Under the pieces are notes generated by a model that worked only from the letters and a program-made list of their open reading frames with translations, was not told the origin of the DNA and did no database searches. Source: Verrucomicrobiia bacterium (GTDB taxonomy: Bacteria; Chloroflexota; Limnocylindria; Limnocylindrales; CSP1-4). From it: DNA of 38,157 nt. The position numbers and the translations under genes were made by a program. Location of the stretch: the NCBI GenBank assembly GCA_035577485.1, contig DATLVO010000110.1:1-38157 (forward strand), in the 5' to 3' direction. This document shows positions 17,460-38,157 of this stretch, piece by piece (positions within the stretch are counted from its first letter, which is position 1; each line of letters starts with the position of its first letter).

Positions 17460-17584
17460 GCCTGAATTGTAGGTTGGGCGTCGGACCGACGGCGTCCGGA
17501 TCGCGCGGATGGCGGACTCCGGGAGCCAAACGATGTCCGGACTCCCTACCGCCACGGGACCATTGACCCGGGGACCGGGCCCGA

Positions 17585-18901
17585 TTGCGTTCGTACGGTT
17601 CGGCGATGATCTCGAGTGGGCAGGGTGAGCAGCTCGGCCGGTCCGGCACCGTGACGAATCGATGGAGCGGCGCGGTTCTTGGGTGGTCGTCGGTGGTGAC
17701 CCGTCTCCGGCAGAGCGACTATTTCGTCATTGGAGCGAGTCGTCGCTTCCGCGCGGCCCAGCGGCGGCGAACGCGGACCGCCAGTCGGGCCGGATTCCTG
17801 GTCATCGCTGCAGCGGTCGCCTTCGACGCGATCGCCCTGCTCGGCCTCCAGGGCAGCGAGACGATGACGGCGCTCGCGCTGAGCGCGAGCACGGTCGGGA
17901 TTGCCCTGGCGGGCTGGCTGCTGCTGGCGCGGCGTCTGCGCCGATACCCCGAGCCCGTGGCATGGGTCGTCGCGATGGGCGTCGCCGTCACGACGGTGGC
18001 AACCGGCCTCACGATCCAGAGCCTCGCGGTGCAAACGGCCGGGTACCTCATCGTGATCCCGGTGCTCGTCTCGCTCGTCCTTCCATGGCGCACCATCACC
18101 CACGTCCGGTGGCTTCTCGGGTATGCGGTCGTCGCCATCGCGTACTTCATCCTCGAACCGAACGATTCGTTCAACGTCGGTGAGCGTGGAGACCTCATCG
18201 TCGTCCTCCTCGTTTCGGTCGGCGCCAGCCTCGCCGGACACGTCCTCCTGCAGTCGTCGCAGCATCGGGCGTTTGCACAGCTCGAGCGCATTCGCGCGCT
18301 ACAGCGTCGCGCAGCGGCCGACATGGTCGAGCTCGAGCGTGCCCACCACGCACTCGAGCTGACGGCCCGAACGGATCCCCTGACCGGAGCGGGCAACCGG
18401 CGTCGCCTCAGCGAGGACCTCCGGGCCGTGCGAGCGCACATCCACCGCTCCGGGTTCACGTACGGCTTGGTCGAGCTCGACCTCGATCGCTTCAAGGCGA
18501 TCAACGACATGCAAGGCCACGCTGCGGGCGACGAAGTCCTGCGCCGGGTCGTCGAGGCGATCCAGGCGTCCCTTCGTGCGAACGACGCCGTGTATCGACT
18601 GGGCGGCGAGGAATTCGCCGTCATCCTGTCCGTGCCCACGCTGGACGGTCTCGCGGCCGCGATGGAGCGCCTTCGCACGATCGTCCTCGGGCTCCGCATC
18701 GATCACCCCGCAAACCCACCCCACGGCGTCGTCTCGATCAGTCTCGGTGGGACGCTGATCGGCCTCGACGACCTCGCGGACTCCGATGACGCCTGGTTCC
18801 GACGGACCGACCGTGCGCTCTACGCGGCAAAGGACGGCGGCCGGAATCGCGTGGAGCTCTGGTCTCGTCCTGAGGAGGATGCCGGAGCCCCGAGCGAGTA
18901 A
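17585..18901 (+). CDS. membrane-anchored diguanylate cyclase (GGDEF)
   Basis: 438-aa ORF (start uncertain: TTG 17585 or ATG 17606). Several TM segments, a coiled linker, then DPLTGAGNRR...RANDAVYRLGGEEFAV, which carries the GGEEF active site with an RxxD I-site 5 residues upstream. Confidence 0.9.
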   Translation: MRSYGSAMISSGQGEQLGRSGTVTNRWSGAVLGWSSVVTRLRQSDYFVIGASRRFRAAQRRRTRTASRAGFLVIAAAVAFDAIALLGLQGSETMTALALSASTVGIALAGWLLLARRLRRYPEPVAWVVAMGVAVTTVATGLTIQSLAVQTAGYLIVIPVLVSLVLPWRTITHVRWLLGYAVVAIAYFILEPNDSFNVGERGDLIVVLLVSVGASLAGHVLLQSSQHRAFAQLERIRALQRRAAADMVELERAHHALELTARTDPLTGAGNRRRLSEDLRAVRAHIHRSGFTYGLVELDLDRFKAINDMQGHAAGDEVLRRVVEAIQASLRANDAVYRLGGEEFAVILSVPTLDGLAAAMERLRTIVLGLRIDHPANPPHGVVSISLGGTLIGLDDLADSDDAWFRRTDRALYAAKDGGRNRVELWSRPEEDAGAPSE

Positions 18902-26698: not shown

Positions 26699-27067
26699 TC
26701 AGTTGAGAGAGCGCCTCTGGCGCTGTCGCTGCCGGATCACCGCGACGAAGCTCTCAGCCTCGTGCCAGTCCTGCCCGTCGAAGAACATGCTGACGGCCTC
26801 CCAGGGCATCCGACCCGTGCGGAGGAGGATCCGGGCCTGGCCGCGATGGGGCTCGGACAGCGAGACCGTCACGATCCGATCGAATGGCCACGATCGGACC
26901 CCGGTGCGCGGTCGGGTCGAGGAGCGGTCTCGAAGAAGGACGACCCGACGTTCGGTGGCGATCAGGCTCGCACCCTGACCGATGAGGACCGCGAGGACGT
27001 CCTCGCCGACCTCGAGCCAGCTCCGCAGGTCGGTCTCCTCAGGGTCGATCCGCCGCGGACGGCTCAT
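26699..27067 (-). CDS. small PH-like (bacterial pleckstrin-homology-type) hypothetical protein
   Basis: ATG at 27067..27065 overlaps the TGA of the REC-EAL gene (ATGA). 122 aa: MSRPRRIDPEETDLRSWLEVGEDVLAVLIGQGASLIATERRVVLL...FDRIVTVSL... The family call is tentative. Confidence 0.55.
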   Translation of the reverse strand: MSRPRRIDPEETDLRSWLEVGEDVLAVLIGQGASLIATERRVVLLRDRSSTRPRTGVRSWPFDRIVTVSLSEPHRGQARILLRTGRMPWEAVSMFFDGQDWHEAESFVAVIRQRQRQRRSLN

Positions 27068-28788
27068 CCGGTCGATTGGGTCGCAGGGCGCGGCTCCGGT
27101 CGACCGAGCAGATAGCCCTGGCCCAGCTTGATGCCGAGACCGCGGACCGCCTCCAGCTCGTGCTGCGTCTCGATCCCCTCGGCGATCAGCTCGCAGCCGG
27201 TCTCCGAGGCGAAATAGGCGAGCCCGGAGACGAGGGCGCGCCGGACTGGGTCGCGGTCGATTCCGTGGACCCACTCGATGTCGAGCTTCACGAAGGCCGG
27301 CTCGAGCGCGAGGATGTGGCGCAGGCTCGCGTAGCCGGACCCGGCGTCGTCCACCGCCAGCCTCACGCCCGGTCCGAGTCGATCGAGCGCCGATCGCACC
27401 GCGTCGTAGTCGTCGATCCGCTCGTGCTCGGTGATCTCGACGATCAAGGGGCGGCCGGCACCCGCCACGATGCGCGGCAATGAGGCCTCGTGCTGGAGGA
27501 CGTCGGCGGACAGGTTGACGCTCAGCGCGACGTCCGGCGGAAGCCACTCGGCCGCCTCGATCGCCGCCGACACCGCGGCGCGCTGCAGCGCAAGGCCGAG
27601 CCCGACCGCGGACGCCTGCTCGAACTGGACGTCCGGTGGCGTCTTATCGGTGAAGCGAGTGAGGGCCTCGACGGCGAACAAGGTTCCCGTCTCCAGGCGG
27701 ACGATCGGCTGCAGGTACGACACGAACTCGTGCCGGGCGATGATCCGGCGGAGGCGGGTGATCGCGCTGTCGGTCGTCTCGGCCCGTTCGACCGCCGGTC
27801 GCAGCACGGCCGAGATAAAGTCGGTCGCATCGATCAGGTCGGGCAGGCGATGCGAGAGCGGGGCGATCTCCGCACCAGGCGTCGCCGCGAAGACGAGACA
27901 TCCGAGCGGCTTCGGCGTCGCGCCGAGCCGGAACGGGACATAGGCAATGTCCTGGGTCGGGCTGCCGAGGTCGGAGGCACCGGACCGCTCGAGCCAGGGC
28001 CCGGAGGCCGCGCGATGTGCGACGTCCCGGCCGATCCGGCGAGGCATCGTCGAGCTCGCCGGGAACGCGCGGCGCAGGGCGCCGCCCGAAGCGATCGCCC
28101 GGACCTCGCCGTGGGCGAAGTGCAGGATCGCCAGGCCCTCGACGCCGAGGACCTCCGGGAGCCGCTCGACGACGAGCGACGCCAGCGCGACGAGCGGACC
28201 GTCGCGTGGCAGCTCCTCGACGGCAGCGGCGAGGCGCCGCCGCTGGTCGCGACCGCGGTCGATCTGGCGTGTCCAGGCGGCGCGGGCCCGGATCTGGGCC
28301 CGAATGCGGGCCGTCAGCTCCTTGAGCGCGAACGGCTTTGTCAGGTAGTCGTCGGCGCCGCTCTCCAGGCCACGGATCCGCTCGGTCTCGGCGGCGGTCC
28401 CCGTGATGAGAATGACGGGCAGGGTCCGGGTCCGCTCATCCGCCCGGATCGCCTGCAGCGTGCGGAGGCCGTCCATGACCGGCATGTGCAGGTCGAGCAG
28501 CACGACGGCCATGTCGAACTCGTTGATCAGCTCGAACGCCTCGCGTCCGTTCGTCGCCTCGACGACCTCGAACCCGTCCCGCTCCAGCACGCGTCGGAGC
28601 AATGACCGGATCCCGGCCTCGTCGTCGGCGATGAGAATCCGCGGGCGATCGTCCCGATCGGAAGGCGTCTTCGCTTGCGCGGGCACGGACGCGGCGATCG
28701 CCGCGAGAGGAATCGGAGGGCCCAGGGCGCTCCGTGGATCGATCGTCCGTTTGGCCGTCATGACCCTCCCCGTTGAGGCCCCGACCAT
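27064..28788 (-). CDS. response regulator receiver - central domain - EAL c-di-GMP phosphodiesterase
   Basis: REC domain: RILIADDEAGIR...LLDLHMPVMDG...ITGTA...YLTKPF. EAL domain: FAVEALTRF, EITEHE, DDAGSGYASL, AEGIET, QGYLLGRP. Alternative start ATG 28761 with GGAGG upstream. Confidence 0.9.
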   Translation of the reverse strand: MVGASTGRVMTAKRTIDPRSALGPPIPLAAIAASVPAQAKTPSDRDDRPRILIADDEAGIRSLLRRVLERDGFEVVEATNGREAFELINEFDMAVVLLDLHMPVMDGLRTLQAIRADERTRTLPVILITGTAAETERIRGLESGADDYLTKPFALKELTARIRAQIRARAAWTRQIDRGRDQRRRLAAAVEELPRDGPLVALASLVVERLPEVLGVEGLAILHFAHGEVRAIASGGALRRAFPASSTMPRRIGRDVAHRAASGPWLERSGASDLGSPTQDIAYVPFRLGATPKPLGCLVFAATPGAEIAPLSHRLPDLIDATDFISAVLRPAVERAETTDSAITRLRRIIARHEFVSYLQPIVRLETGTLFAVEALTRFTDKTPPDVQFEQASAVGLGLALQRAAVSAAIEAAEWLPPDVALSVNLSADVLQHEASLPRIVAGAGRPLIVEITEHERIDDYDAVRSALDRLGPGVRLAVDDAGSGYASLRHILALEPAFVKLDIEWVHGIDRDPVRRALVSGLAYFASETGCELIAEGIETQHELEAVRGLGIKLGQGYLLGRPEPRPATQSTG

Positions 28789-28865: not shown

Positions 28866-29585
28866 TCAGGGTGCCCTGGTCGAACGGACCATGGCGTCGA
28901 GCTCGAGACCATCCGGATGCAGGAGCCGGAGCCCTCGCCGACCGACCCGAGCCAGGGTTCCTTCTCGTTCGAGCTCCCGAAGGACGCGGCCGGTCATCTC
29001 GCGACTGGTGCCGACGAGGCTCGGGAGATCGGACCGGGCCAGGACTGGCGGCTCGCCGAAGAAGAGGTCCTGGTGCCGGGCGAGGATCCGGATCACGCGG
29101 CGTCGGGAGTCCTGGTGGAGGAACCCGTCGATCTTCTCCGTGATGACGTTCGCGAAGCCGGCCAGTCGATCGATGGCGTCGAGAGCAAGGCCGAGGTCGG
29201 TCCCTGCCAGCGCTCGGAGCTCGGGGCCACTCCAGAGGGCGACGTCGGCGTCGGTCAGGGCCACCATATCGACGGTCGTGTTGACGAGGGCGATGCTGGA
29301 GTAGCCGAAGAGCTCCGTGGGGCCGCCGATCCCGACCGCGAGCTGCTGGCCATCGACTGTGGTCCGGCGGAAGAGGCCGTACCCGCGCAATAGCAGCGCC
29401 ATGGGGATCGGCTCGTCCTGTCGGAAGATCGTCACATGTCGACGGAAGGCCTGGATCCGGGCCGTTTCGACGAGGATGTCAACCGTCCCGGCGCTGGCGT
29501 TCGGCAGCCCTCGCTCGATCGAGGCGCGAAGGTTCGGCTCGCCACGGGATGTCGGCGAACCGGAGAGGGTGTTGCGAGAAGCCAC
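28866..29585 (-). CDS. Crp/Fnr family transcriptional regulator
   Basis: 239-aa ORF with a cNMP-binding-like beta-roll (IFRQDEPIPMALLLRGYGLFRR...ELFG) and a C-terminal HTH (SREMTGRVLRELEREGTL). 77 nt upstream of REC-EAL on the same strand. Confidence 0.85.
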   Translation of the reverse strand: MASRNTLSGSPTSRGEPNLRASIERGLPNASAGTVDILVETARIQAFRRHVTIFRQDEPIPMALLLRGYGLFRRTTVDGQQLAVGIGGPTELFGYSSIALVNTTVDMVALTDADVALWSGPELRALAGTDLGLALDAIDRLAGFANVITEKIDGFLHQDSRRRVIRILARHQDLFFGEPPVLARSDLPSLVGTSREMTGRVLRELEREGTLARVGRRGLRLLHPDGLELDAMVRSTRAP

Positions 29586-29737
29586 GGATCCGTTTCTGTT
29601 TCCTGTAATGAACGCGGGGGTCAGTCCGATCGAACGACCGGCTCACTCGACCGAGCGGCGACCGGCTAGGAACCTTGTACTGCACCAGCGTCGAGAAGTC
29701 CAAGACATCATTGACCTCGGACCAATAATCGGGGTGC

Positions 29738-30649: not shown

Positions 30650-30788
30650 CGAAGACAGGCAGTCGGGTCGGAGCAGGTCGGGCAAACCCGGCCGGCAGTC
30701 GCAGCTAAGCGGCCGGTGAGCCCTCGCGGGCACCATCCATCCATGTCCGGCCCAGACGATCTGCGCAGGCGCCACCGCCTCCGAATCG

Positions 30789-30818
30789 TTGACACCGCCC
30801 ATCAGCCGTCCGTATCGT
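30789..30818 (+). promoter_or_regulatory. candidate sigma70-like promoter for the STAND regulator
   Basis: TTGACA (30789-30794), 18 nt, TATCGT (30813-30818). It lies inside the longest ORF (GTG 30716), which argues for a downstream start. Confidence 0.3.
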
Positions 30819-30835
30819 TCGCGCCGCCCGATCCG

Positions 30836-33800
30836 ATGGTCATCGGTCCGCGAGGGAGGACCCGCGCCACGCGCGCGCCGATCGCGCTCGGTCCGGGGCG
30901 CGCGCTGATCGCGACGCCCAATCGCGTCCGCGCCGATACAGGTGACGGCGTGAGCGGCTACCCGATTCAGCCCGGCAAGGTCCAGGCACCTGCCCTCCGG
31001 GACGAGACGCTGGCCCGGACGCGCCTGCTCGACTGGCTGGACGTGAAGATCCACAGTCGGGTCGTCTTCGTCATCGCCGACGCGGGCTACGGCAAGACGA
31101 CGTTGCTCGCGGACTTCGCCCGTCGGACCCGACTCCGGACCCTCTGGTACCGGATCGACGAGGAGGATCGGGACTGGGTCGGGTTCCTGTCACACCTCGT
31201 GGCCGCCGGGCGCGAACACGACCCCGGGTTTGCGCCCTCGACGGCGGCGATGCTCCGATCTCTCGAGCCCGCCGGCCCGACGCGCGAAGACACGCTCGAG
31301 ACCTTCCTGGCCGAGCTTCCAACGATCGCCGACGACGGGGCCGTCCTGATCTTCGACGACTTCCACCTGGCCGACGAGGTGGCCGACATCCGCCTCATCG
31401 CACGTGAGATCGTCACGCGGGCGCCGGAGCGGCTCTCCGTCGTGTTTGCCAGCCGTCGCCAGCCGGCGGTGCCGGTCGCGCGGCTGCGGTCGCTGGGTGA
31501 GCTCGCGGAGATCGGGATCGCCGAGCTGCGCTTCTCCGAGGCGGAGATGGAGCAGCTCTTCCGGGAGACGTTCCGCCGGCCGCTCGAAGCCGATGTCCTC
31601 GTCGAGCTCGCGCGTCGAACCGAGGGCTGGGCCGCGTCACTCAGCCTCGTCCAGGCCGCCCTCCGTGAGCGGACCCCGGCTGAGACGCGGTCGTTCGTCC
31701 GAGGCCTGTCCGGCGCGCACGACGAGCTGCACGACTATCTGGCCGAGGAGGTCGTCGGCGAACTTCCCGCGATCCACCAGCAGTTCCTGATGCGGACGTC
31801 GATCCTCCAGCTCGTGACGCCCGAGCTGGCTCAGGTCGCGACCGGGTTGACCGCGGTCGAGGTCCAGTCGCTCCTCACCGAGTCCGAGCGTCTGGGCATG
31901 CTCGGCCGACGGACGGAGCGCCGCGCATCAGGCCAGCGATATCACCCCTTGGTGCGTGAGTTTCTTGAATCTCGCCTCATCCGCGACGTCGGTGCCGACG
32001 GTATCGACCGGCTGCATGGACTGGTTGCTGCATGGGCTGAGCCTTTCGACTGGCGCACTGCTGCCCATCACTACGCCGCATGCCGTCGCTGGCGGGACTT
32101 GCGGAGGGTGCTCGACGACTCGCTTGAGTCAGTCGTCGCTGCAGGAGCGTTTTCCATTGCGGCCGAGCTGATTGAACAACTGCCAGCCGGCCTTCACGCG
32201 TCAGCAACCGTTGAGGTCGTCCGATCCAGGCTTGCAAGTTTGGTTGGCGACGTCGAGCAAGTCATGGCTCATGCCCAACGCGCAATCGAGCTGGATCCTG
32301 ACTCGGATGCGGCCGTGAACAACCTGATCTCATCGAGCTACTTGTCCGGGGACCTCGACATCGCGTTGACCTTGGCGGACCAACTTGCGACCGGAGCGAA
32401 ATCGCCCTTGATGAGGTCAGTCGGCGAAGCGGCAAGCGTGTCCATCAGAACGTCGCTTGACTACGAACTTGGCCCAGCGATTCGGAAGATGGAGGAGCTC
32501 GCTGCCAGTAGCCGCGAAAATGGGCATCTTCATTTCGAAGGCGTCAGCCTCCTGAACGCCTCGCTTATGTATCGCGCCCAGGGCGCAGTAGTCGATGTCT
32601 TGGCGGCCTCATCTCAGGCAATGGATGCCCTGTCTGCGTCCTCATCGGGCAACGAACTAGCCTCTGCGGCTTTCGTCAAAGCCTGGGCTTTAGCGTTCCG
32701 CGGCGACTTACCTGCCGCGAGGCAGCTTCTCCGGGATACGGGCGCCGATCTCAGTCACAGCTCTCGAGCCGAGTTTCTCGTCGAATTTGCAGAGATGGAG
32801 TCCCACTTCGGCGACGCCGCTTCCGCGACACACCTTTTGGATGAAACGGTGGGCCTGACAATGCCCGGTCCAATCGTGGAGATTCGGAAGGTCGTTCGAG
32901 CCCAGCTGGCTATTAGGGAAGGCGATCTCGTCGAAGCCGTTCGCGAGCTTGACTTGGCCCACGTCGACAAACCCACCTCAAACCCGGGGCATCTCAACCG
33001 GGTGCTTGCGATGAGGGCAATGGTGGCATCGCTTCGCGGAAACTCGAGCGCTCGATCGCTCGCATCGGCGGCAGTCGCATCATCCGAGAGGCAGCAGGCC
33101 TACCTGTGGCGCGAGTTGGCGTCGCTGAGTTTGGCCGCACAGACGGACCAACTTGGAGCCGCAATTCTAGGGTTGCCATCTCAAATTTCGCCAGTGATCT
33201 CGATCGCATGCGAGCTCGTTCTTAGCAAACTTCAAGGGCTTCCTGACGACGCGCTCAACGTGATCCAGGAAGAGGCGTCGATTCGGCCAGAACGTTGGCG
33301 ACCAGCGCTTAGAAAGGTCTTGGCTGGCGGCTCAGCCGATGCCCGATTGATTGCAGCCCGCCTACTCGACGTCGTCGGCGACCAGTCAGATGTCGTTCGG
33401 CTGCGGTTGGTGGCGCGAGAGCCGGGGCGAACTGGGGGCGACAAGCTACTTGGACGAGCCTTGGCCCGGCGAATCGCGCCGAGAGCCGTCGTAGAGGATT
33501 TGGGCCGCGTCGTAATACATCTCGGGTCTGTCCAGATCAACGGTGGCGACGTGCGACGCAAGGTTCTCGCGATGCTGTGCTATTTGCTGACGAAGCCCAA
33601 ATTTGCTGCCGCTCGAGAAGAAGTAATGGACGCCATGTGGCCCGATATGGATCCAGCGGCGGCATTGAACTCGCTCAATCAAACTCTTTATTTCCTGCGA
33701 CGAGTGTTCGAACCAGCGTATTCAGAGGACACCTCCGCTGGGTACGTCCACCAGGAGTCCGACGTCGTCTGGCTTGATCCCACCCTCGTTCAATCGACCA

Positions 33801-34195
33801 GCTCAAACTGTCGCGACCTCATCAGGGCGTACGAGCTCCGACCGGATCCAGAGATCGTGCGACAGTTGGGGCGATCGTATGCAGGACGATTCGCCTTGGA
33901 TTTCGCCTACGAAGACTGGGCGAACGACTTCAGGGAATCACTACACGTGGCCTATCTGCACGTCATCGAGTCGTCGATTCACGACGACATCCGCAGTGGT
34001 CATTTCATGCGAGGGATCGAAGTCGCTCGGCGAGCGATCGAGCTCGATCCGGGGCTCGATTCCCTCGAGGTCTCACTGTTGAGACTCTTGAAAAACTCGG
34101 GTGCCCACTCCGCCGCAGCGGAGCAATACGGACGCTACGCGCACCTAATGCGGGACGAGCTCGGCGTCGAGCCGCCGCCCCTCGACGGCGTGTGA
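30836..34195 (+). CDS. STAND (MalT/LAL-like) ATPase - TPR/helical sensor - C-terminal OmpR-type wHTH + BTAD regulator
   Basis: Longest ORF is 30716..34195. Likelier starts are ATG 30836 or GTG 30950 (AGGTGA upstream). Walker A IADAGYGKTTLLADF, Walker B LIFDDFHLAD. About 550 aa of helical repeats follow. The C-terminus has LGSVQINGGDV...KVLAMLCYLL...EEVMDAMWPD...LNQTLYFLRRVF (SARP-type wHTH) and ...IELDPGLDSLEVSLLRLLKNSGAHSAAAEQYGRYAHLMRDELGVEPPP (BTAD). Confidence 0.85.
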   Translation: MVIGPRGRTRATRAPIALGPGRALIATPNRVRADTGDGVSGYPIQPGKVQAPALRDETLARTRLLDWLDVKIHSRVVFVIADAGYGKTTLLADFARRTRLRTLWYRIDEEDRDWVGFLSHLVAAGREHDPGFAPSTAAMLRSLEPAGPTREDTLETFLAELPTIADDGAVLIFDDFHLADEVADIRLIAREIVTRAPERLSVVFASRRQPAVPVARLRSLGELAEIGIAELRFSEAEMEQLFRETFRRPLEADVLVELARRTEGWAASLSLVQAALRERTPAETRSFVRGLSGAHDELHDYLAEEVVGELPAIHQQFLMRTSILQLVTPELAQVATGLTAVEVQSLLTESERLGMLGRRTERRASGQRYHPLVREFLESRLIRDVGADGIDRLHGLVAAWAEPFDWRTAAHHYAACRRWRDLRRVLDDSLESVVAAGAFSIAAELIEQLPAGLHASATVEVVRSRLASLVGDVEQVMAHAQRAIELDPDSDAAVNNLISSSYLSGDLDIALTLADQLATGAKSPLMRSVGEAASVSIRTSLDYELGPAIRKMEELAASSRENGHLHFEGVSLLNASLMYRAQGAVVDVLAASSQAMDALSASSSGNELASAAFVKAWALAFRGDLPAARQLLRDTGADLSHSSRAEFLVEFAEMESHFGDAASATHLLDETVGLTMPGPIVEIRKVVRAQLAIREGDLVEAVRELDLAHVDKPTSNPGHLNRVLAMRAMVASLRGNSSARSLASAAVASSERQQAYLWRELASLSLAAQTDQLGAAILGLPSQISPVISIACELVLSKLQGLPDDALNVIQEEASIRPERWRPALRKVLAGGSADARLIAARLLDVVGDQSDVVRLRLVAREPGRTGGDKLLGRALARRIAPRAVVEDLGRVVIHLGSVQINGGDVRRKVLAMLCYLLTKPKFAAAREEVMDAMWPDMDPAAALNSLNQTLYFLRRVFEPAYSEDTSAGYVHQESDVVWLDPTLVQSTSSNCRDLIRAYELRPDPEIVRQLGRSYAGRFALDFAYEDWANDFRESLHVAYLHVIESSIHDDIRSGHFMRGIEVARRAIELDPGLDSLEVSLLRLLKNSGAHSAAAEQYGRYAHLMRDELGVEPPPLDGV

Positions 34196-34225
34196 ATTGA
34201 GTATGGGGATAGGTAGGATGACGTA

Positions 34226-34255
34226 TTGACCGGTGTTGAAGGGTCTACCTATAGT
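34226..34255 (+). promoter_or_regulatory. sigma70-like promoter in low-GC spacer
   Basis: TTGACC (34226-34231), 18 nt, TATAGT (34250-34255). Confidence 0.4.
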
Positions 34256-34261
34256 CCGGCT

Positions 34262-34404
34262 CACTTCCCAGTACGGAGGTACTAGGAAGCAAAGGTAAGA
34301 ACGCTCGGACGCGCAGACGCCTCACCTGAAATGGGCACTTAGGGTGAGGCCGAGCGATTAGTGCAACCGACCGACCATTGCGTCAGGTCGGTTTTCGTGT
34401 TCTT
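34262..34404 (+). ncRNA. candidate structured RNA of about 140 nt (sRNA or cis-regulatory leader)
   Basis: Three hairpins between the predicted TSS and a U-tract. H1 is at 34267-34286 (8 bp with 1 mismatch, loop GGAG). H2 spans 34302-34356: CGCTCG/CGAGCG plus GCCTCACC/GGTGAGGC, with an 11-nt 5' bulge GACGCGCAGAC. H3 is the terminator. Confidence 0.35.
34365..34404 (+). terminator. intrinsic terminator
   Basis: AACCGACCGAC / GTC(A)GGTCGGTT stem (11 bp, one bulge), 6-nt loop, followed by TTTTCGTGTTCTT. Confidence 0.6.
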
Positions 34405-34434
34405 AGAGCACGAAAGCCGCGAGGAGGAACGAGC

Positions 34435-34467
34435 GTGTTTCCAGATACGAGCGTCAAGGGCTGGTAG
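34435..34467 (+). CDS. mini-ORF 1, 10 codons, MFPDTSVKGW*
   Basis: GTG 34435 lies 7 nt after GAGGAGG (34421-34427), the strongest SD in the spacer. Shares its C-terminal SVKGW-stop with mini-ORF 2. Confidence 0.3.
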   Translation: MFPDTSVKGW

Positions 34468-34477
34468 GGAGAATCCG

Positions 34478-34567
34478 ATGAAGCTTCGCTTGATTCGGAT
34501 CGCTCTTGCTCTGGGCACCGTTGCATCGATGGCGATTGCAGGCGGGGCGTCAGTCAAGGGCTGGTAA
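34478..34567 (+). CDS. mini-ORF 2, 29-aa signal-peptide-like pro-peptide MKLRLIRIALALGTVASMAIAGGASVKGW*
   Basis: ATG 34478 lies 5 nt after GGGAGA. Basic n-region, 14-residue hydrophobic core, A-I-A cleavage motif, 8-residue tail. It is internal to the 68-aa track ORF 34361..34567, whose start lies in the terminator stem. Confidence 0.45.
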   Translation: MKLRLIRIALALGTVASMAIAGGASVKGW

Positions 34568-34647
34568 ATCAGTACGTTTGGAGGCTGACGTATAAAGCGG
34601 CGGAGGGTTAGAGTCGCTTCGACGTCCCCGAACGTACAGGGGCTGTA

Positions 34648-36060
34648 ATGCCTAGGTCCCTAAAGCTCTATATCACACTGCTCGTGGCACTCAGCGCCGT
34701 TGCGCTGGCGGTCACGAGTTTTGTGTTTGGCATCCACCCCGCGATCGCCATCCAAGTAGATGGCGACCCGACGACTGCGTCGACGTTTGAGATCGCACTC
34801 GGGCTCACATTCTGGACAGCCGTCACGGTGTTGGCTTCGGCCCTCCCCGTCCGCATGCCTCGAGGAATGCTGGTCACGGTTTCGATCGCGCCCGTCATTG
34901 CTGCGACGACGCTCGGCGGACCGGCAGCGGGTGGCTGGATTGCTCTAATCGGGTCAACGGAATTTCGAGAACTGCGAGGGCGCGTTCCCTGGTATGGGAC
35001 TTTGGCGAACCACGCCGGGATTGTCGTGCCCGCGACCATCGGTGGCGTCGTCATCGAGGTGCTGCGTCAGAACTCCCCGTTGGTCATTCTCGATTTCGCG
35101 GCGACTTTGGTCGGCGCGGCGGTCTACTTCGGCCTCAACTTGTTACTCGTTTCGGTCCTGCTCCACCTCCGAACACAGCAGCGCCTCCGTGAACTCTTCG
35201 TCGGAGACGTCACGGCTTTCTGGGGCAACCTCTTCGCGCTCGCTCCCCTTGGCTGGCTCATGGCGCGGATGTATTCGCTCGCCGGTGCGGGATGGTGGGC
35301 GATGCTGCTCTTTGCGCTTCCGCTCTACACGACCCGGGTGGCGTACAACCGCTTCGTCGAGATGCGGGACATGTTCACGCAGACCATCGGCGCATTGGCC
35401 GAGGCGGTGGACAAGCGCGATCCGTTCACCAGCAAACACAGCCACCGGGTCAAGCAGATCGCGGTCGACATTGGGCGGGAGATGCGGGTTGGCGCCCACG
35501 AGCTCGAGGCGCTCGAATGGGGCGGGCTGCTCCACGATGTTGGCAAGATCGGCGTGCCAGACAACGTCCTGCTCAAAAGCGATCGCCTGACGCGCGACGA
35601 GCGCATGACGATGAACGCCCACCCGGTGCTCGGCGCCCAGATCATCGCGCCGGTCACGAAGCTGGCGCCGGAGCTGCCGATCATCCGCCACCACCACGAG
35701 TGGTACAACGGCAGTGGCTACCCCGACCGGCTGATCGGCGATGAGATCCCGAAGCTCGCCCGCATCCTCCACGTCGCCGACGCATTCGAGGCGATGACCG
35801 CCCAACGCCCGTACCGGATGACGCCACTGACGGCGGAGCAGGCGCTCGCCGAGCTTCGCAAGTTCGCCGGCATCCAGTTCGACCCGGTCGTGGTCGACGC
35901 GTTCGTCCGGACCCCGTGGGTCCACGGCGTGTCGGACCCGGGTCGTCGGGCCGAGCCGCGTCAGATCCCGCTCATCGGCCAGGCCGCGAACCAGCCCACC
36001 CCGGCCCGGGCGGGAGCAGTCAGCGGCGATTCGGCGGCCACCATGGTCGAGCAGGCCTGA
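34648..36060 (+). CDS. multi-pass membrane HD-GYP domain protein (c-di-GMP phosphodiesterase type)
   Basis: 470-aa ORF with an N-terminal region of about 230 aa containing about 6-7 TM segments. HD domain: HSHRV...LLHDVGKIGVPD... plus HHEWYNGSGYP (the HD-GYP signature). Confidence 0.9.
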   Translation: MPRSLKLYITLLVALSAVALAVTSFVFGIHPAIAIQVDGDPTTASTFEIALGLTFWTAVTVLASALPVRMPRGMLVTVSIAPVIAATTLGGPAAGGWIALIGSTEFRELRGRVPWYGTLANHAGIVVPATIGGVVIEVLRQNSPLVILDFAATLVGAAVYFGLNLLLVSVLLHLRTQQRLRELFVGDVTAFWGNLFALAPLGWLMARMYSLAGAGWWAMLLFALPLYTTRVAYNRFVEMRDMFTQTIGALAEAVDKRDPFTSKHSHRVKQIAVDIGREMRVGAHELEALEWGGLLHDVGKIGVPDNVLLKSDRLTRDERMTMNAHPVLGAQIIAPVTKLAPELPIIRHHHEWYNGSGYPDRLIGDEIPKLARILHVADAFEAMTAQRPYRMTPLTAEQALAELRKFAGIQFDPVVVDAFVRTPWVHGVSDPGRRAEPRQIPLIGQAANQPTPARAGAVSGDSAATMVEQA

Positions 36061-36253
36061 CGCCCGAGCGACGCCATTCGGGGGGCGATCGACCGGACGC
36101 AGCGACCCACGCAACCACGAATGCCGGCGCCTGAGCCTTCGACCGCGCACTACGCCATTCGTCCGGGTGGCGTCCGCTCAATCGCCCGGCGCATGATTCG
36201 GCCGCGATGACGATCCCTCCGGCAGCCGGCCGGCACGCTCGACAGAGCCCCGC

Positions 36254-38157
36254 GTGCTGATCGGCGGCATCGTCTTCGGGCTTGTCCTCGGCCTGCTGGC
36301 CGGCGGCTCGATCGGCAACCTTTCGAACGTCCGCCTGCGCTGGGTCGCGATCCTCATGTTCGCGGTCATCCTTCGCTTCGCGACGGAATGGCTGCTGATC
36401 CATGGCAACGCCCTCGTCGAAGCGTTGCGCCTGCCGCTCTTCGTCTTCGCGTTCGCCTTGCTGCTCATCGCCCTGTGGGCGAACCGGACCCAGCCAGGGA
36501 TGCGGCTGGCATTCGTCGGGATCCTCTCGAACACGATCGCGATCGTGGCCAACGCCGGCCACATGCCGATCTGGTCGCCCAGCCTCGAGGCGGCCGGCTT
36601 CACGTTCGCCGACGTGACGTCGCCCTTCCACGTGATCCTGCCGCCCGACCTGAACGCGGGCTTCCTCCTCCACGCCGGCCCGCTCGCCGACATCCTGCCG
36701 ATCCCGATCCCCTGGGTCCGCAACGTCGCCTCGATCGGGGACGTGTTCCTGACCGCAGGCCTCGCATTCTTCCTGTTCGCGACGGTCCTCCGGTCGCAGG
36801 ACGAGGAGGAGAACCCCGAGATCAGCCCCGACGGGGTGCCGCTGGCGGGCCTTGCGGCGGCCACGCGCCTGCCCCGCGGGATCCAGGCCGCGATGGGCAA
36901 CCAGCGGCTGCGGCCCGGCACGGGATTGGCGACGGGGCTGCCGAGCGGCCTGTCGAACACGGCGGCGCTGCGGCGGCCGCTCGTCCTCGGCTCGCCGGGG
37001 GAGGGTCTCGCGGCGCCGGCGCCGGCATTGGCGCCCGTCCCGTACGGCACGGCCGGTGAGTCGGCACTCCCCATCCCAGGCCGGCCGCGGATCGAAGTCG
37101 GGGAGCTCGTCCGTCGCCACCCCTACGTCCGGCTCGCCCTCAACGGTTCGTTCTCGTCGCTCTGGACCGGCCAGCTGATCAGCCTCTTCGGCGATCGGGT
37201 CCACCAGGTGGCGCTTGCGTTCCTCGTCCTCGGGATCACCAACTCGCCGCTCGCGATGGCGATGGTCTTCGTCGCGGCGACGCTCCCGAACCTCCTCCTG
37301 GCGCCGATCGCAGGCGCCTATGTCGACCGCTGGAACCATCGCGACGTGATGATCGTGAGCGACCTGCTCCGGGCCGCGGCCGTGCTCCTGATCCCGATCG
37401 TCGCGGTCACGAACATCTACCTGGTCTACCCGTTCGTGTTCCTCGTCACGTCGGTCTCGATCTTCTTCCGGCCGGCCCGCGTCGCGGTCCTGCCGCGGAT
37501 CGTGCGCCAGGACGAGCTGCTCACGGCCAACTCGGCCCTGTGGGCCGGCGAGACCTTCGCCGACATCCTCGGCTACCCGCTGGCGGGGATCTTCGTCGCT
37601 TTCCTCGGCCCGGCGCTGCCCCTGGCCTTCTGGCTGGACGCCGCCACCTACGCCGCGTCGGCGATCCTGATCGCCTCGATCTTCGTCCCGCCCGTTCGAC
37701 GGGCGCGGGCGGGCGGGAGGCGCGCCGGCGACCCCGACGCCGACGACGCCGGCACCGGCGCCGACGGGGCCCCGCGAGGCGTTCTCGCCGAGATGGCCGA
37801 GGGGTTCCACTTCCTCCGACGGGAGCCCGTCCTCTTCGCGAACACGATCCAGGCGGTCTTCGCCCAGTTCGCGATCGGCGCCCTCACGGTGCTGACGCCG
37901 CTCCTGGTCCGCGACGTCATCGCCGACCCGCATGTCGAGCCGACCGCGGCGTACGCATTCCTGGAGACGGCGATCGGGATCGGCAACCTGCTCGGCGGCT
38001 TCGTGCTGGGGCTCGTCGGGGCGCGGCTCGCCAAGGGCCGGACGGTGATCGTCGGCTATGTCCTGTGGGGCATCTCGATGGTCGCCGTCGCGTTCGCGGG
38101 CAACCTGGCCCTCGCGTTCGGGATCCTGTTCGGGGCCGGCGTCGCCAACATGATCTT
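36254..38157 (+). CDS. DUF5317-like membrane domain fused in frame to an MFS transporter, partial (runs off window end)
   Basis: Absent from the track (no stop in window). GTG 36254 gives VLIGGIVFGLVLGLLAGGSIGNLSNVRLRW...VANAGHMPIW...DVFLTAGLAFFLF. An Ala/Pro/Gly linker of about 100 aa follows. The MFS part is RRHPYVRLALNGSFSSLWTGQLISLFGDRV...YVDRWNHRDVMIVSDLLRA, paralogous in motifs to the MFS at 4070-5512. I read codon by codon from 36782 to 37140 and found no stop. Confidence 0.72.
   Translation, partial: MLIGGIVFGLVLGLLAGGSIGNLSNVRLRWVAILMFAVILRFATEWLLIHGNALVEALRLPLFVFAFALLLIALWANRTQPGMRLAFVGILSNTIAIVANAGHMPIWSPSLEAAGFTFADVTSPFHVILPPDLNAGFLLHAGPLADILPIPIPWVRNVASIGDVFLTAGLAFFLFATVLRSQDEEENPEISPDGVPLAGLAAATRLPRGIQAAMGNQRLRPGTGLATGLPSGLSNTAALRRPLVLGSPGEGLAAPAPALAPVPYGTAGESALPIPGRPRIEVGELVRRHPYVRLALNGSFSSLWTGQLISLFGDRVHQVALAFLVLGITNSPLAMAMVFVAATLPNLLLAPIAGAYVDRWNHRDVMIVSDLLRAAAVLLIPIVAVTNIYLVYPFVFLVTSVSIFFRPARVAVLPRIVRQDELLTANSALWAGETFADILGYPLAGIFVAFLGPALPLAFWLDAATYAASAILIASIFVPPVRRARAGGRRAGDPDADDAGTGADGAPRGVLAEMAEGFHFLRREPVLFANTIQAVFAQFAIGALTVLTPLLVRDVIADPHVEPTAAYAFLETAIGIGNLLGGFVLGLVGARLAKGRTVIVGYVLWGISMVAVAFAGNLALAFGILFGAGVANMI

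Follow-up and report, generated by a model that had tools for sequence, protein, structure and literature searches.

Two very short genes lying within positions 34421 to 34567 of contig DATLVO010000110.1 are the first cistrons of an operon placed behind a cyclic di-GMP (c-di-GMP) riboswitch, in which the enzyme is a c-di-GMP phosphodiesterase of the HD-GYP type, and the arrangement has been kept across a class of Chloroflexota. This much we hold to be firm. The interpretation that we favor, tentatively and with rather less than even confidence, is that this interval serves as the translated leader for an operon under c-di-GMP control, made up of open reading frame 1 (ORF1), ORF2, the HD-GYP gene, and a DUF5317/MFS gene, with the ORF2 peptide acting on the membrane proteins made together with it. 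An earlier note on this DNA had read the pair as a possible peptide-communication cassette, with the TPR-containing STAND regulator encoded just upstream as the receptor; it overlooked a c-di-GMP-II riboswitch at 34298 to 34381, which changes the regulatory logic, in that the two mini-ORFs open an HD-GYP operon gated by this riboswitch. By the window we mean the whole 38,157-nucleotide (nt) stretch of this contig; all coordinates are window positions, and the genes described are on the plus strand unless marked otherwise. The two mini-ORFs are the following.

34421 to 34467, + strand: ORF1 with its Shine-Dalgarno sequence (GAGGAGG, 34421 to 34427; start GTG 34435; stop TAG 34465 to 34467; peptide MFPDTSVKGW)
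34467 to 34567, + strand: ORF2 with its Shine-Dalgarno sequence (GGGAGA, 34467 to 34472; start ATG 34478; stop TAA 34565 to 34567; peptide MKLRLIRIALALGTVASMAIAGGASVKGW)

Two mini-genes kept across a bacterial class

Direct reading of positions 34100 to 34800 gives a 10-residue ORF1 product and a 29-residue ORF2 product whose C-terminal residues are nearly alike, and it bears out the starts, stops, Shine-Dalgarno positions, and peptides that the earlier note had assigned to both, as well as the serine codons, AGC and TCA, that precede the shared stretch. The same note had reported two copies of the 14-mer GTCAAGGGCTGGTA; the first does lie at 34453 to 34466, while the second is at 34553 to 34566, 2 nt away from the 34551 to 34564 originally given. 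By chance, 0.07 matches would be expected with 2 mismatches allowed, and two matches were found in 0 of 100 shuffles. The exact SVKGW/SVKGW identity of the window is a special case, in that ORF1 generally ends in K-[G/P/A]-[W/F/Y] and ORF2 in [K/R]-G-F.

The comparison with other genomes drew on two sets of loci. The genome set comprises 80 loci around HD-GYP homologues from species-representative genomes, mostly Limnocylindria/Limnocylindrales, and the metagenome set comes from a scan with a degenerate DNA pattern for the ORF2 tail, which returned 108 further stretches, 80 of which were examined. Of the 168 loci with an aptamer core followed by 260 nt or more of sequence, 167 had the ORF2 tail in place, and both ORFs could be parsed in 160. 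Every examined metagenome match with enough flanking sequence had the riboswitch upstream and the HD-GYP gene about 70 to 78 nt downstream. Both mini-ORFs are thus real genes, kept across some 160 loci of soil and freshwater Chloroflexota (class Limnocylindria). Loci that at first seemed to lack ORF1 or ORF2 turned out to be parsing artefacts (starts at GTG or TTG or, in one clade, an ORF2 start that overlaps) or to carry frameshifts. Frame-breaking indels, which the earlier note had named as something that would speak against its proposal, occur in three loci only (L025, L050, and L058); in each, ORF2 is split by a single frameshift, and all three are long-read (MFD) metagenome-assembled genomes (MAGs), so that these are probably assembly errors rather than pseudogenes.

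The pattern of substitution supports ORF2 as a translated gene under selection at the level of the peptide. The bias toward synonymous substitution that had been suggested as a check is strong, the proportions of nonsynonymous and synonymous differences (pN/pS) being 0.29/0.67 overall and 0.088/0.67 for codons 21 to 29, and when the same DNA is read in its other two frames, pN exceeds pS. Entropy is 1.56 bits at third codon positions versus 0.85 at first and 0.52 at second positions, and third positions in the tail carry 1.8 to 1.9 bits where the first and second are invariant.

The ORF2 peptides conform to the pattern M-K-x-R-h-h-R-(hydrophobic)-A-h-A-G-G-A-S-[LIV]-[KR]-G-[FW]. Among 113 unique 29-mers, A19, A21, G22, G23, A24, S25, L26, G28, and F29 are near-invariant, and conservation climbs toward the C terminus, being densest in the A-x-A motif and over the final eight residues. 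All are 29 codons long, a fixed length, and have basic residues at K2, R4, and R7, exactly 19 hydrophobic or small residues between R7 and K/R27, and an aromatic end. The signal-peptide layout and C-terminal motif that had been pointed out in the single sequence recur in these 113 peptides (n-h-c with A-x-A), and ORF2 looks like a Sec-signal-peptide-like n-h-c sequence with A-x-A, followed by a near-invariant octapeptide, GGAS[LIV][KR]G[FW]. The fixed length, the R7-to-K/R27 spacing, and the aromatic end would fit a bitopic membrane micro-protein equally well.

ORF1 has 9 or 10 codons in 158 of 161 loci and usually begins with a GTG situated 6 to 8 nt past AGGAGG. Its pattern is M-x-P-[DE]-x-x-x-K-[G/P/A]-[W/F/Y], with lysine at position -3 and an aromatic last residue each present in 160 of the 161 loci; the lone exception to the aromatic end, L073, finishes in ...AIKGWN, with an extra codon past the aromatic one. 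The last codon is TGG, TTY, or TAC only (160/161), and the one-step Leu, Cys, and Ser intermediates are never seen. The third bases of P3 (CCN) and D/E4 (GAN) are free. Overall pN/pS is near 1, codons 2 to 7 being almost neutral (0.55/0.56), and five of the nine positions bear codon-level marks of amino acid selection.

A check proposed in the earlier note came out positive, in that homologues of the STAND gene are followed by these micro-ORFs. The gene is detected directly upstream, on the same strand, in 69 of the 80 loci of the genome set; in most of the rest, the contig does not reach far enough upstream. One sub-clade has genes resembling those of mobile elements, with recombinase-like and HNH-like ORFs lying between the riboswitch unit and the STAND gene or replacing the latter. 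In this sub-clade (metagenome contigs L099, L115, and L139, together with L080), ORF2 reads MKTRLLRLLAVASTIGAAV[LI]AGGASLKGF and serine-recombinase-like and HNH-like ORFs occupy the place of the STAND gene, which in L080 is found about 3 kb further away. A separate observation concerns L002 and L014, both from MAG JAXDKI01 (isolate BP_591), which between them appear to hold two complete cassettes with unlike peptides, one pairing an ORF2 ending in ...SLKGF with an ORF1 ending in ...VVKGW and the other pairing ...SLRGF with ...ITKGW; this could be paralogy or contamination of the bin. Full-text literature searches turned up no account of the cassette, nor any of DUF5317 or of mini-ORFs that follow a c-di-GMP-II riboswitch.

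A c-di-GMP-II riboswitch between promoter and mini-genes

The DNA ahead of ORF1 contains a promoter, an aptamer, and several hairpins.

34209 to 34230, + strand: conserved 22-nt element ATAGGTA-N6-CGTATTGAC, which abuts and overlaps the -35 box; its columns are invariant or nearly so in a 52-locus alignment
34226 to 34255, + strand: sigma-70-type promoter TTGACC-18 nt-TATAGT, with 10 of 12 consensus positions; both hexamers are kept in the alignment
34264 to 34289, + strand: stem-loop or palindrome CTTCCCAGTAC-GGAG-GTACTAGGAAG near the predicted 5' end of the transcript, found in the minimum free energy (MFE), centroid, and RNAalifold consensus folds
34298 to 34381, + strand: c-di-GMP-II riboswitch aptamer (RF01786), from the Rfam covariance model
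34367 to 34399, + strand: terminator-like hairpin CCGACCGAC/GTCaGGTCGG (9-bp hairpin at 34367 to 34391) followed by TTTTCGTG, in the RNAalifold consensus and MFE folds
34393 to 34415, + strand: second hairpin UUUCGUGUUC/GAGCACGAAA, which takes in the U-tract, in the RNAalifold consensus and MFE folds

The aptamer is the sole match to Rfam in the window. With 66 bits (E value of 1e-14), it exceeds the gathering score of 53.5; it covers model positions 1 to 84 of 84 and ends about 50 nt upstream of ORF1. RF01786 was found at the equivalent position in 10 of 13 related loci tested, and the riboswitch core stands 270 to 310 nt before the HD-GYP start in about 70 of the 80 genome loci, that is, in nearly all of those with enough upstream DNA. 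The nucleotides of the core and pseudoknot (the GGGCAC loop and the 3' segment GUGCAACC) match the Rfam consensus and are invariant in the 52 aligned loci.

The Rfam alignment places the 3' strand of aptamer helix P1 at 34371 to 34381, and thus within the 5' arm of the terminator-like hairpin, the pairs of which are nearly invariant in the RNAalifold consensus. Because this strand belongs to both structures, aptamer and hairpin are mutually exclusive, and because it doubles as the 5' arm of the hairpin, the riboswitch is predicted to be an ON switch, for which such a layout is usual, and in which binding of c-di-GMP would prevent termination. In the second hairpin, one pair has 17 double compensatory changes and a further pair has 6. 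Folding by MFE without ligand joins the P1 5' strand (ACGCUCG, 34301 to 34307) to CGAGCGU (34430 to 34436), which holds the ORF1 start codon, and this pairing is possible in 87% of alignment cells.

A promoter scan of 34100 to 34750 returned the promoter at 34226 to 34255 as the sole such site (shuffles gave a mean of 0.1). An exact copy of the 22-nt element occurs once per locus in 111 of 188 loci, always at the riboswitch promoter, and the window likewise has a single copy; the element at 34209 to 34230 may be where the neighboring regulator binds with its SARP-type domain. The perfect-looking palindrome that follows the promoter could be either a DNA operator or an RNA (stabilizer) hairpin; its outer part reads GCAC/GTGC rather than CTTCC/GGAAG in one clade, and its 5' arm is similar to the end of ORF2, CTTCTAGTAC. 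The whole leader of promoter, riboswitch, and mini-ORFs (34196 to 34647) is visibly richer in A+T by eye, in a window of 69.5% G+C.

A hairpin that spans the ORF2-HD-GYP spacer

The spacer between ORF2 and the HD-GYP gene is structured as well.

34572 to 34637, + strand: spacer hairpin with outer stem GTACGTTTGG/CCGAACGTAC, starting 5 nt past the ORF2 stop (in most loci, directly at the stop)

This hairpin ends 1 nt before the HD-GYP Shine-Dalgarno sequence (AGGGG, 34638 to 34642), and its upper part holds the conserved GGAGGGTTAGAGT. In the genome set, a near-constant 72 to 76 nt separate the ORF2 stop from the start of the HD-GYP gene. The spacer folds as a long hairpin in almost every locus, with a mean MFE of -38.3 versus -30.5 kcal/mol for shuffled sequences; the expected number of pairs between the segment after the stop and the segment before the Shine-Dalgarno sequence is 6.75 versus 1.67 for shuffles, and at least 5 pairs form in 33 of 54 loci. 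The stem was tested through named pairs, RNAalifold on MAFFT-aligned spacers having given no consensus fold, with the interior misaligned. By this test, the outer stem (GUACGUU/AACGUAC in most loci) pairs in 80.6% of cells and has double changes at three of its seven pairs. For the stem and the Shine-Dalgarno helix together, covariation was 0.179 versus 0.137, a level reached by 3 of 500 shuffles, and controls slid along the alignment paired in 28 to 53% of cells. A ribosome finishing ORF2 would open the foot of the hairpin, and the structure therefore suggests that translation of the HD-GYP gene may be coupled to translation of ORF2.

The idea that translation of ORF1 unmasks the ORF2 ribosome-binding site gained no support, the probability of that site being unpaired coming to 0.43 in the native sequence, 0.45 with the ORF1 region occupied, and 0.40 in shuffled sequences. 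The conserved stretch GGAGGG(A/T)TTAGAGT in the upper part of the spacer hairpin (34600 to 34614) combines a Shine-Dalgarno-like run with a -10-like TAGAGT; an internal promoter at the latter (34609 to 34614) was considered and was not called by the promoter scan.

A shared C terminus and a preference for TAG

In one clade, the last five residues of ORF1 and ORF2 are identical and change together, with TLKGF/TLKGF in seven loci along with SIKGF/SIKGF, SLKGY/SLKGY, and the SVKGW/SVKGW of the window. Within-locus matches between the tails at positions -1, -4, and -5 numbered 62 versus 47.1 ± 2.8 when ORF2 tails were permuted, and 0 of 5,000 permutations reached the observed value, although this test is inflated by the kinship of the loci, among which only some four to six independent events can be made out. 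Where the amino acids are the same, codon identity was 0.649 within loci and 0.639 between loci. Because the two values are alike, neither recent gene conversion nor a repeat at the nucleotide or RNA level is taken to be the cause of the shared tail; a mere nucleotide repeat is what the earlier note had listed as an outcome that would count against it.

The stop codons are unusual too. In the unbiased genome set, TAG makes up 82% and 84% of the stops of the two ORFs, and in the larger set it makes up 70% for ORF1, compared with about 20% TAG and 75% TGA for ordinary large genes of the same genomes. The ORF2 of the window itself ends in TAA.

Genes around the mini-ORFs

The neighbors that had been named before, a STAND/TPR/BTAD regulator upstream and HD-GYP and DUF5317/MFS genes downstream, all on one strand, agree with the Pfam results.

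30716 to 34195, + strand (start at GTG 30716 or ATG 30836): STAND regulator gene (Pfam AAA_16, TPR_4, BTAD)
34648 to 36060, + strand: gene for a MASE9-HD-GYP membrane c-di-GMP phosphodiesterase (Pfam MASE9, HD_5, HD)
36197 to 38157, + strand, running off the window end: DUF5317 plus a DHA3-type MFS efflux transporter in a single open frame (Pfam, NCBIfam)
17567 to 18898, + strand: GGDEF diguanylate cyclase gene
27064 to 28788, - strand: REC-EAL phosphodiesterase gene
28869 to 29642, - strand: gene for a Crp-like cNMP-binding regulator

Residues 85 to 490 of the regulator match the NOD and arm of MalT (PDB 8bob, E value of 1.4e-36), residues 947 to 1155 match the SARP DNA-binding domain of AfsR (PDB 8hvr), and the protein matches positions 4 to 557 of the NCBIfam MalT profile at 8e-60, below the family cutoff. 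The MalT-type NOD-arm-sensor architecture is present, with the LuxR-type C-terminal helix-turn-helix (HTH) replaced by a winged HTH (wHTH) and BTAD. By its domain matches, the regulator is thus a STAND NTPase of the MalT-like kind that carries a TPR-type sensor and, at its C terminus, a SARP-type wHTH+BTAD. Homologues of the HD-GYP protein run into the thousands, at 60 to 90% identity, in Chloroflexota MAGs and in soil and groundwater metagenomes, and its MASE9 domain belongs to a type that has been predicted to bind a ligand within the membrane (bioRxiv 10.1101/2021.11.05.467447).

The frame at 36197 to 38157 contains DUF5317 at residues 45 to 193 and MFS_1/MFS_3 at residues 317 to 650 (Pfam), with matches to TIGR00900 and to Mef/Tap/Tet(V)-like families in NCBIfam. 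It is syntenic in 71 of the 71 loci with enough downstream DNA, forms one stop-free frame in 66 of these, and looks like a conserved fusion protein. In related loci (L001 to L080), it lies about 1.3 to 3.5 kb past the HD-GYP start. Minus-strand ORFs at 36020 to 37933 and 36178 to 37074, which have tblastn matches in 77 loci and no Pfam match, were discarded as antisense-frame artefacts of high-GC DNA; long, Arg-rich, spurious ORFs on the wrong strand are frequent elsewhere in the window.

The remaining genes (hut genes, folD, DinB, LexA, DnaB, GGDEF, REC-EAL, Crp-like, and LysR regulators) are those of an ordinary chromosome. In related genomes, neither the LysR gene nor the EAL gene keeps synteny with the cassette, EAL being the one of the GGDEF, REC-EAL, and Crp-like trio that was tested. 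Among the scanned window genes, there was no SBP_bac_5 or Opp-type importer gene, although one may be present elsewhere in the genome.

A proposed translated leader whose peptide may act on co-made membrane proteins

The model that we tentatively favor runs as follows. Binding of c-di-GMP to the aptamer would block the terminator-like hairpin and allow read-through, and in the ligand-free state the P1 5' strand would pair with the ORF1 start region; high c-di-GMP would in this way switch on its own degrading enzyme, a negative feedback. ORF1 would be the riboswitch-gated first cistron, with its K-G-aromatic end under a related constraint, and ribosomes completing ORF2 would open the HD-GYP ribosome-binding site. 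The ORF2 product would enter the membrane N-in and either be kept as a bitopic micro-protein or be cut after A-x-A, with GGAS[LIV][KR]G[FW] presented or released on the outer face, where it would serve locally as a ligand or cofactor for the membrane proteins made along with it. Of these, the MASE9 sensor of the HD-GYP enzyme would be the likeliest target, with the DUF5317-MFS protein as an alternative. The MalT/SARP-type regulator probably acts on the promoter through 34209 to 34230 and would constitute a second input.

Several points count against this model. All of its functional steps (ligand binding, termination, translation, export, and cleavage) are predictions. A simple terminator scan called no terminator at 34367 to 34399, where the stem is bulged and the U-tract short. 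The base pairs predicted between the P1 5' strand and the ORF1 start show no covariation in the alignment, none having changed on both sides. The HD-GYP Shine-Dalgarno sequence can pair with the last ORF2 codons in 68% of cells, mostly through U-G pairs. A partial Mantel analysis of peptide against domain distances puts MASE9 slightly ahead of the STAND sensor, but the correlation is weak (partial r of 0.13 to 0.28) and is confounded by physical linkage and phylogeny. Conservation along the ORF2 hydrophobic segment has no 100-degree helical periodicity (permutation p of 0.35 to 0.74), so that there is no conserved helix-packing face, and the pattern looks more like a cleavable signal peptide followed by a small mature peptide than like such a face. 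Nor does the model give any reason why a cytoplasmic 10-mer should share the tail of an exported peptide or why the tails should covary.

It is possible, though in our view unlikely, that the locus encodes a c-di-GMP-licensed circuit in which a Sec-exported and a leaderless peptide sharing [S/T]-[LIV]-K-G-aromatic are sensed by a co-evolving receptor, STAND or MASE9, with c-di-GMP degradation as the output. The version of this that comes closest to the earlier note is one of peptide communication, in which the ORF2 octapeptide and the leaderless ORF1 peptide would be sensed by the TPR sensor of the STAND protein, which would then activate the riboswitch promoter in a c-di-GMP-gated autoinduction; we judge it a little harder to credit. 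ORF2 would be exported by Sec and cut after A-x-A, the ORF1 peptide would possibly leave through DUF5317-MFS, [S/T]-[LIV]-K-G-aromatic would be the part that is bound, and the output would be c-di-GMP degradation. The position of the STAND gene, directly upstream in nearly all loci, is what such a circuit would call for, as are the operator-like site at the -35 box of this promoter only and the efflux-type MFS within the cassette; in one sub-clade, however, mobile-element-like genes separate the adjacent STAND gene from the cassette or replace it, and there is no oligopeptide importer in the window. The tripartite signal-peptide design of ORF2, with its near-invariant A-x-A, selection on the last eight residues, and lack of a helical-face pattern, also fits an exported signal, yet this presumed signal hardly varies within a clade as broad as a class, unlike diversified pherotype peptides. 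Covariation of the tails at the amino acid level without excess identity of synonymous codons makes recognition of both by a shared protein plausible, and the MAG with two cassettes and unlike tails could be read in the same sense; the covariation may, however, amount to only a handful of clade-level events. The putative receptor is MalT-like with a NOD NTPase, not of the RRNPP type, its sensor region has diverged more than any other part of the cassette (mean distance of 0.71), and tail variation does not follow sensor distance once phylogeny is controlled for (partial r of -0.03 to 0.07). Of the RRNPP-like cassette suggested earlier, then, the adjacency, the signal-peptide design, and the C-terminal motif stand, and the points that speak against it are the receptor architecture, a near-invariant peptide facing a divergent sensor, and the want of an Opp gene in the window.

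A quite different proposal, to which we assign a low probability, is that the mini-ORFs are purely cis-acting leader ORFs, translation of which alone would count, preventing premature termination and unmasking the HD-GYP site, and the peptides of which would have no function. Both ORFs do lie within a riboswitch leader, the ORF2 stop lies at the base of a hairpin extending as far as the HD-GYP Shine-Dalgarno sequence, the distance of about 72 to 76 nt from ORF2 to the HD-GYP gene is constant, and ORF1 codons 2 to 7 are almost neutral; in a known precedent, moreover, a riboswitch-controlled upstream ORF (uORF) is required for translation of the gene behind it (PMC11260477). Selection at the protein level is nonetheless hard to reconcile with a role purely in cis. 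The pN/pS of the ORF2 tail, with its free third positions, denotes a constraint on protein rather than RNA, the basic n-region, hydrophobic core, and A-x-A are kept in 113 unique sequences, and the last ORF1 codon is confined to W, F, or Y, which requires two-step changes with no intermediates observed. Moreover, there is no sign that ORF1 translation unmasks the ORF2 site, the unpaired probability differing little from that of shuffles (0.43 versus 0.40).

Least likely, to our minds, is control by the nascent peptide at termination. [K/R]-G-aromatic followed by UAG would produce a pause at release factor 1 (RF1) or a very efficient release, perhaps depending on a small molecule, and this might time the opening of downstream RNA or re-initiation, like TnaC, MAGDIS-type, and antibiotic-sensing leader peptides. 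In its favor are the enrichment of TAG over ordinary genes, the presence of one C-terminal motif on two otherwise unrelated peptides of a single leader, the position of the conserved residues at the extreme C terminus, nearest the peptidyl-transferase center, and the RNA structure that begins immediately past the ORF2 stop. Part of the ORF2 TAG bias is, however, explicable by base pairing, the signal-peptide-like body of ORF2 is left unexplained, and covariation of tails between species would not be expected if the partner were the invariant ribosome. We also know of no arrest motif (SecM, MifM, VemP, TnaC, Erm, or Cat leaders) that matches, which counts against this proposal. The ribosome exit tunnel holds about 30 to 40 residues; a force sensor of the SecM/MifM type can be dismissed, since the 29-residue ORF2 peptide would still be wholly inside the tunnel at termination.

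Significance and comparison with known systems

The locus demonstrates that two genuine genes, of 10 and 29 codons, both conserved at the protein level and passed over by annotation pipelines, can lie in the leader of a riboswitch. The module of regulator, promoter, riboswitch, mini-genes, HD-GYP, and DUF5317-MFS is constant throughout a class of Chloroflexota from soil and fresh water that is abundant and uncultured. It offers a testable design for c-di-GMP homeostasis, in which the ligand would induce its own phosphodiesterase, with the STAND protein as a second input and a translational relay. The octapeptide could be the long-sought ligand or partner of a MASE-type sensor, or it could be a peptide signal, and either would tie small peptides to second-messenger turnover. 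If the circuit with a peptide receptor is the true one, it would join quorum-type or autocrine peptide sensing with c-di-GMP homeostasis and would be the first such peptide-receptor pairing outside the Firmicutes-type RRNPP or Agr systems. The shared C terminus and TAG bias of the mini-genes make a clean puzzle for work on translation and small proteins.

The c-di-GMP-II riboswitch class was reportedly described by Lee et al. in 2010. The element found here resembles other members in its full-length aptamer, its GGGCAC/GUGCAACC core, an expression platform that overlaps P1, and its association with a c-di-GMP turnover gene, and it differs in belonging to uncultured Limnocylindria, in the two mini-ORFs that precede the enzyme gene, and in a second, covarying hairpin with a U-tract. 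Among leaders with translated ORFs, the closest parallels are the uORF behind a Mycobacterium tuberculosis B12 riboswitch, on whose translation that of ppe2 has been shown experimentally to depend, with metE as a further case (PMC11260477), and the SAM-II metA leader of Sinorhizobium meliloti, which is riboswitch controlled and translated (PMC9373788). The ppe2 leader likewise has a short ORF right behind the aptamer, although the dependence of the downstream gene that was shown there is here predicted from the spacer hairpin. Two serial uORFs, conservation at the peptide level, a signal-peptide design, and another ligand set the present leader apart from those of ppe2, metE, and metA, and where the riboswitch uORF precedents have overlap or termination-reinitiation, it has a structured spacer of 72 to 76 nt.

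The cassette shares with the RRNPP systems (Rap-Phr, NprR-NprX, PlcR-PapR, AimR-AimP, and Rgg-SHP) a small pro-peptide gene behind the gene for a TPR regulator, a Sec-type or hydrophobic N terminus, and a conserved C-terminal part, the functional one in those systems. It departs from them in having a MalT-type STAND plus SARP regulator with an NTPase in place of a TPR protein joined to an N-terminal HTH or a phosphatase domain, no Opp importer nearby, a peptide that is near-invariant across species, an interposed riboswitch, a second, leaderless peptide, and a host in Chloroflexota rather than in Firmicutes or their phages. As for the regulator, its NOD-arm homology is that of MalT, with a C-terminal SARP domain taking the place of the LuxR-type HTH, and its wHTH+BTAD is that of SARP/AfsR proteins, in a domain order that is new relative to both. 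At SARP-dependent promoters, the activator site abuts the -35 box, as the element at 34209 to 34230 does.

ORF2 can also be set beside the small membrane proteins KdpF, CydX, MgtR, MgrB (with PhoQ), and AcrZ, with which it has in common a length of about 30 residues, one hydrophobic span (about 19 to 20 residues), and a positive N terminus; like the KdpF/CydX-type partners, it is encoded in the same operon just upstream of polytopic membrane-protein genes, to which it is apparently coupled in translation. In contrast to partners of the KdpF/CydX/MgrB type, it has no conserved helical face, its constraint lies in the last 8 to 11 residues, and its partner is a candidate only. That a signal peptide can give rise to a small protein of this sort has been described for MntS (bioRxiv 10.1101/2023.06.02.543501). 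The arrest peptides TnaC, SecM, MifM, VemP, and the Erm/Cat leaders, finally, are similar in being short leader ORFs with C-terminal conservation at the peptide level just upstream of a regulatory RNA structure, and dissimilar in that they bear no sequence resemblance to the present pair and that ORF2 is too short for force sensing. Each class of component in this locus is therefore already known from elsewhere, and what is new is their fixed combination, the micro-peptide family, and the paired C-terminal motif.

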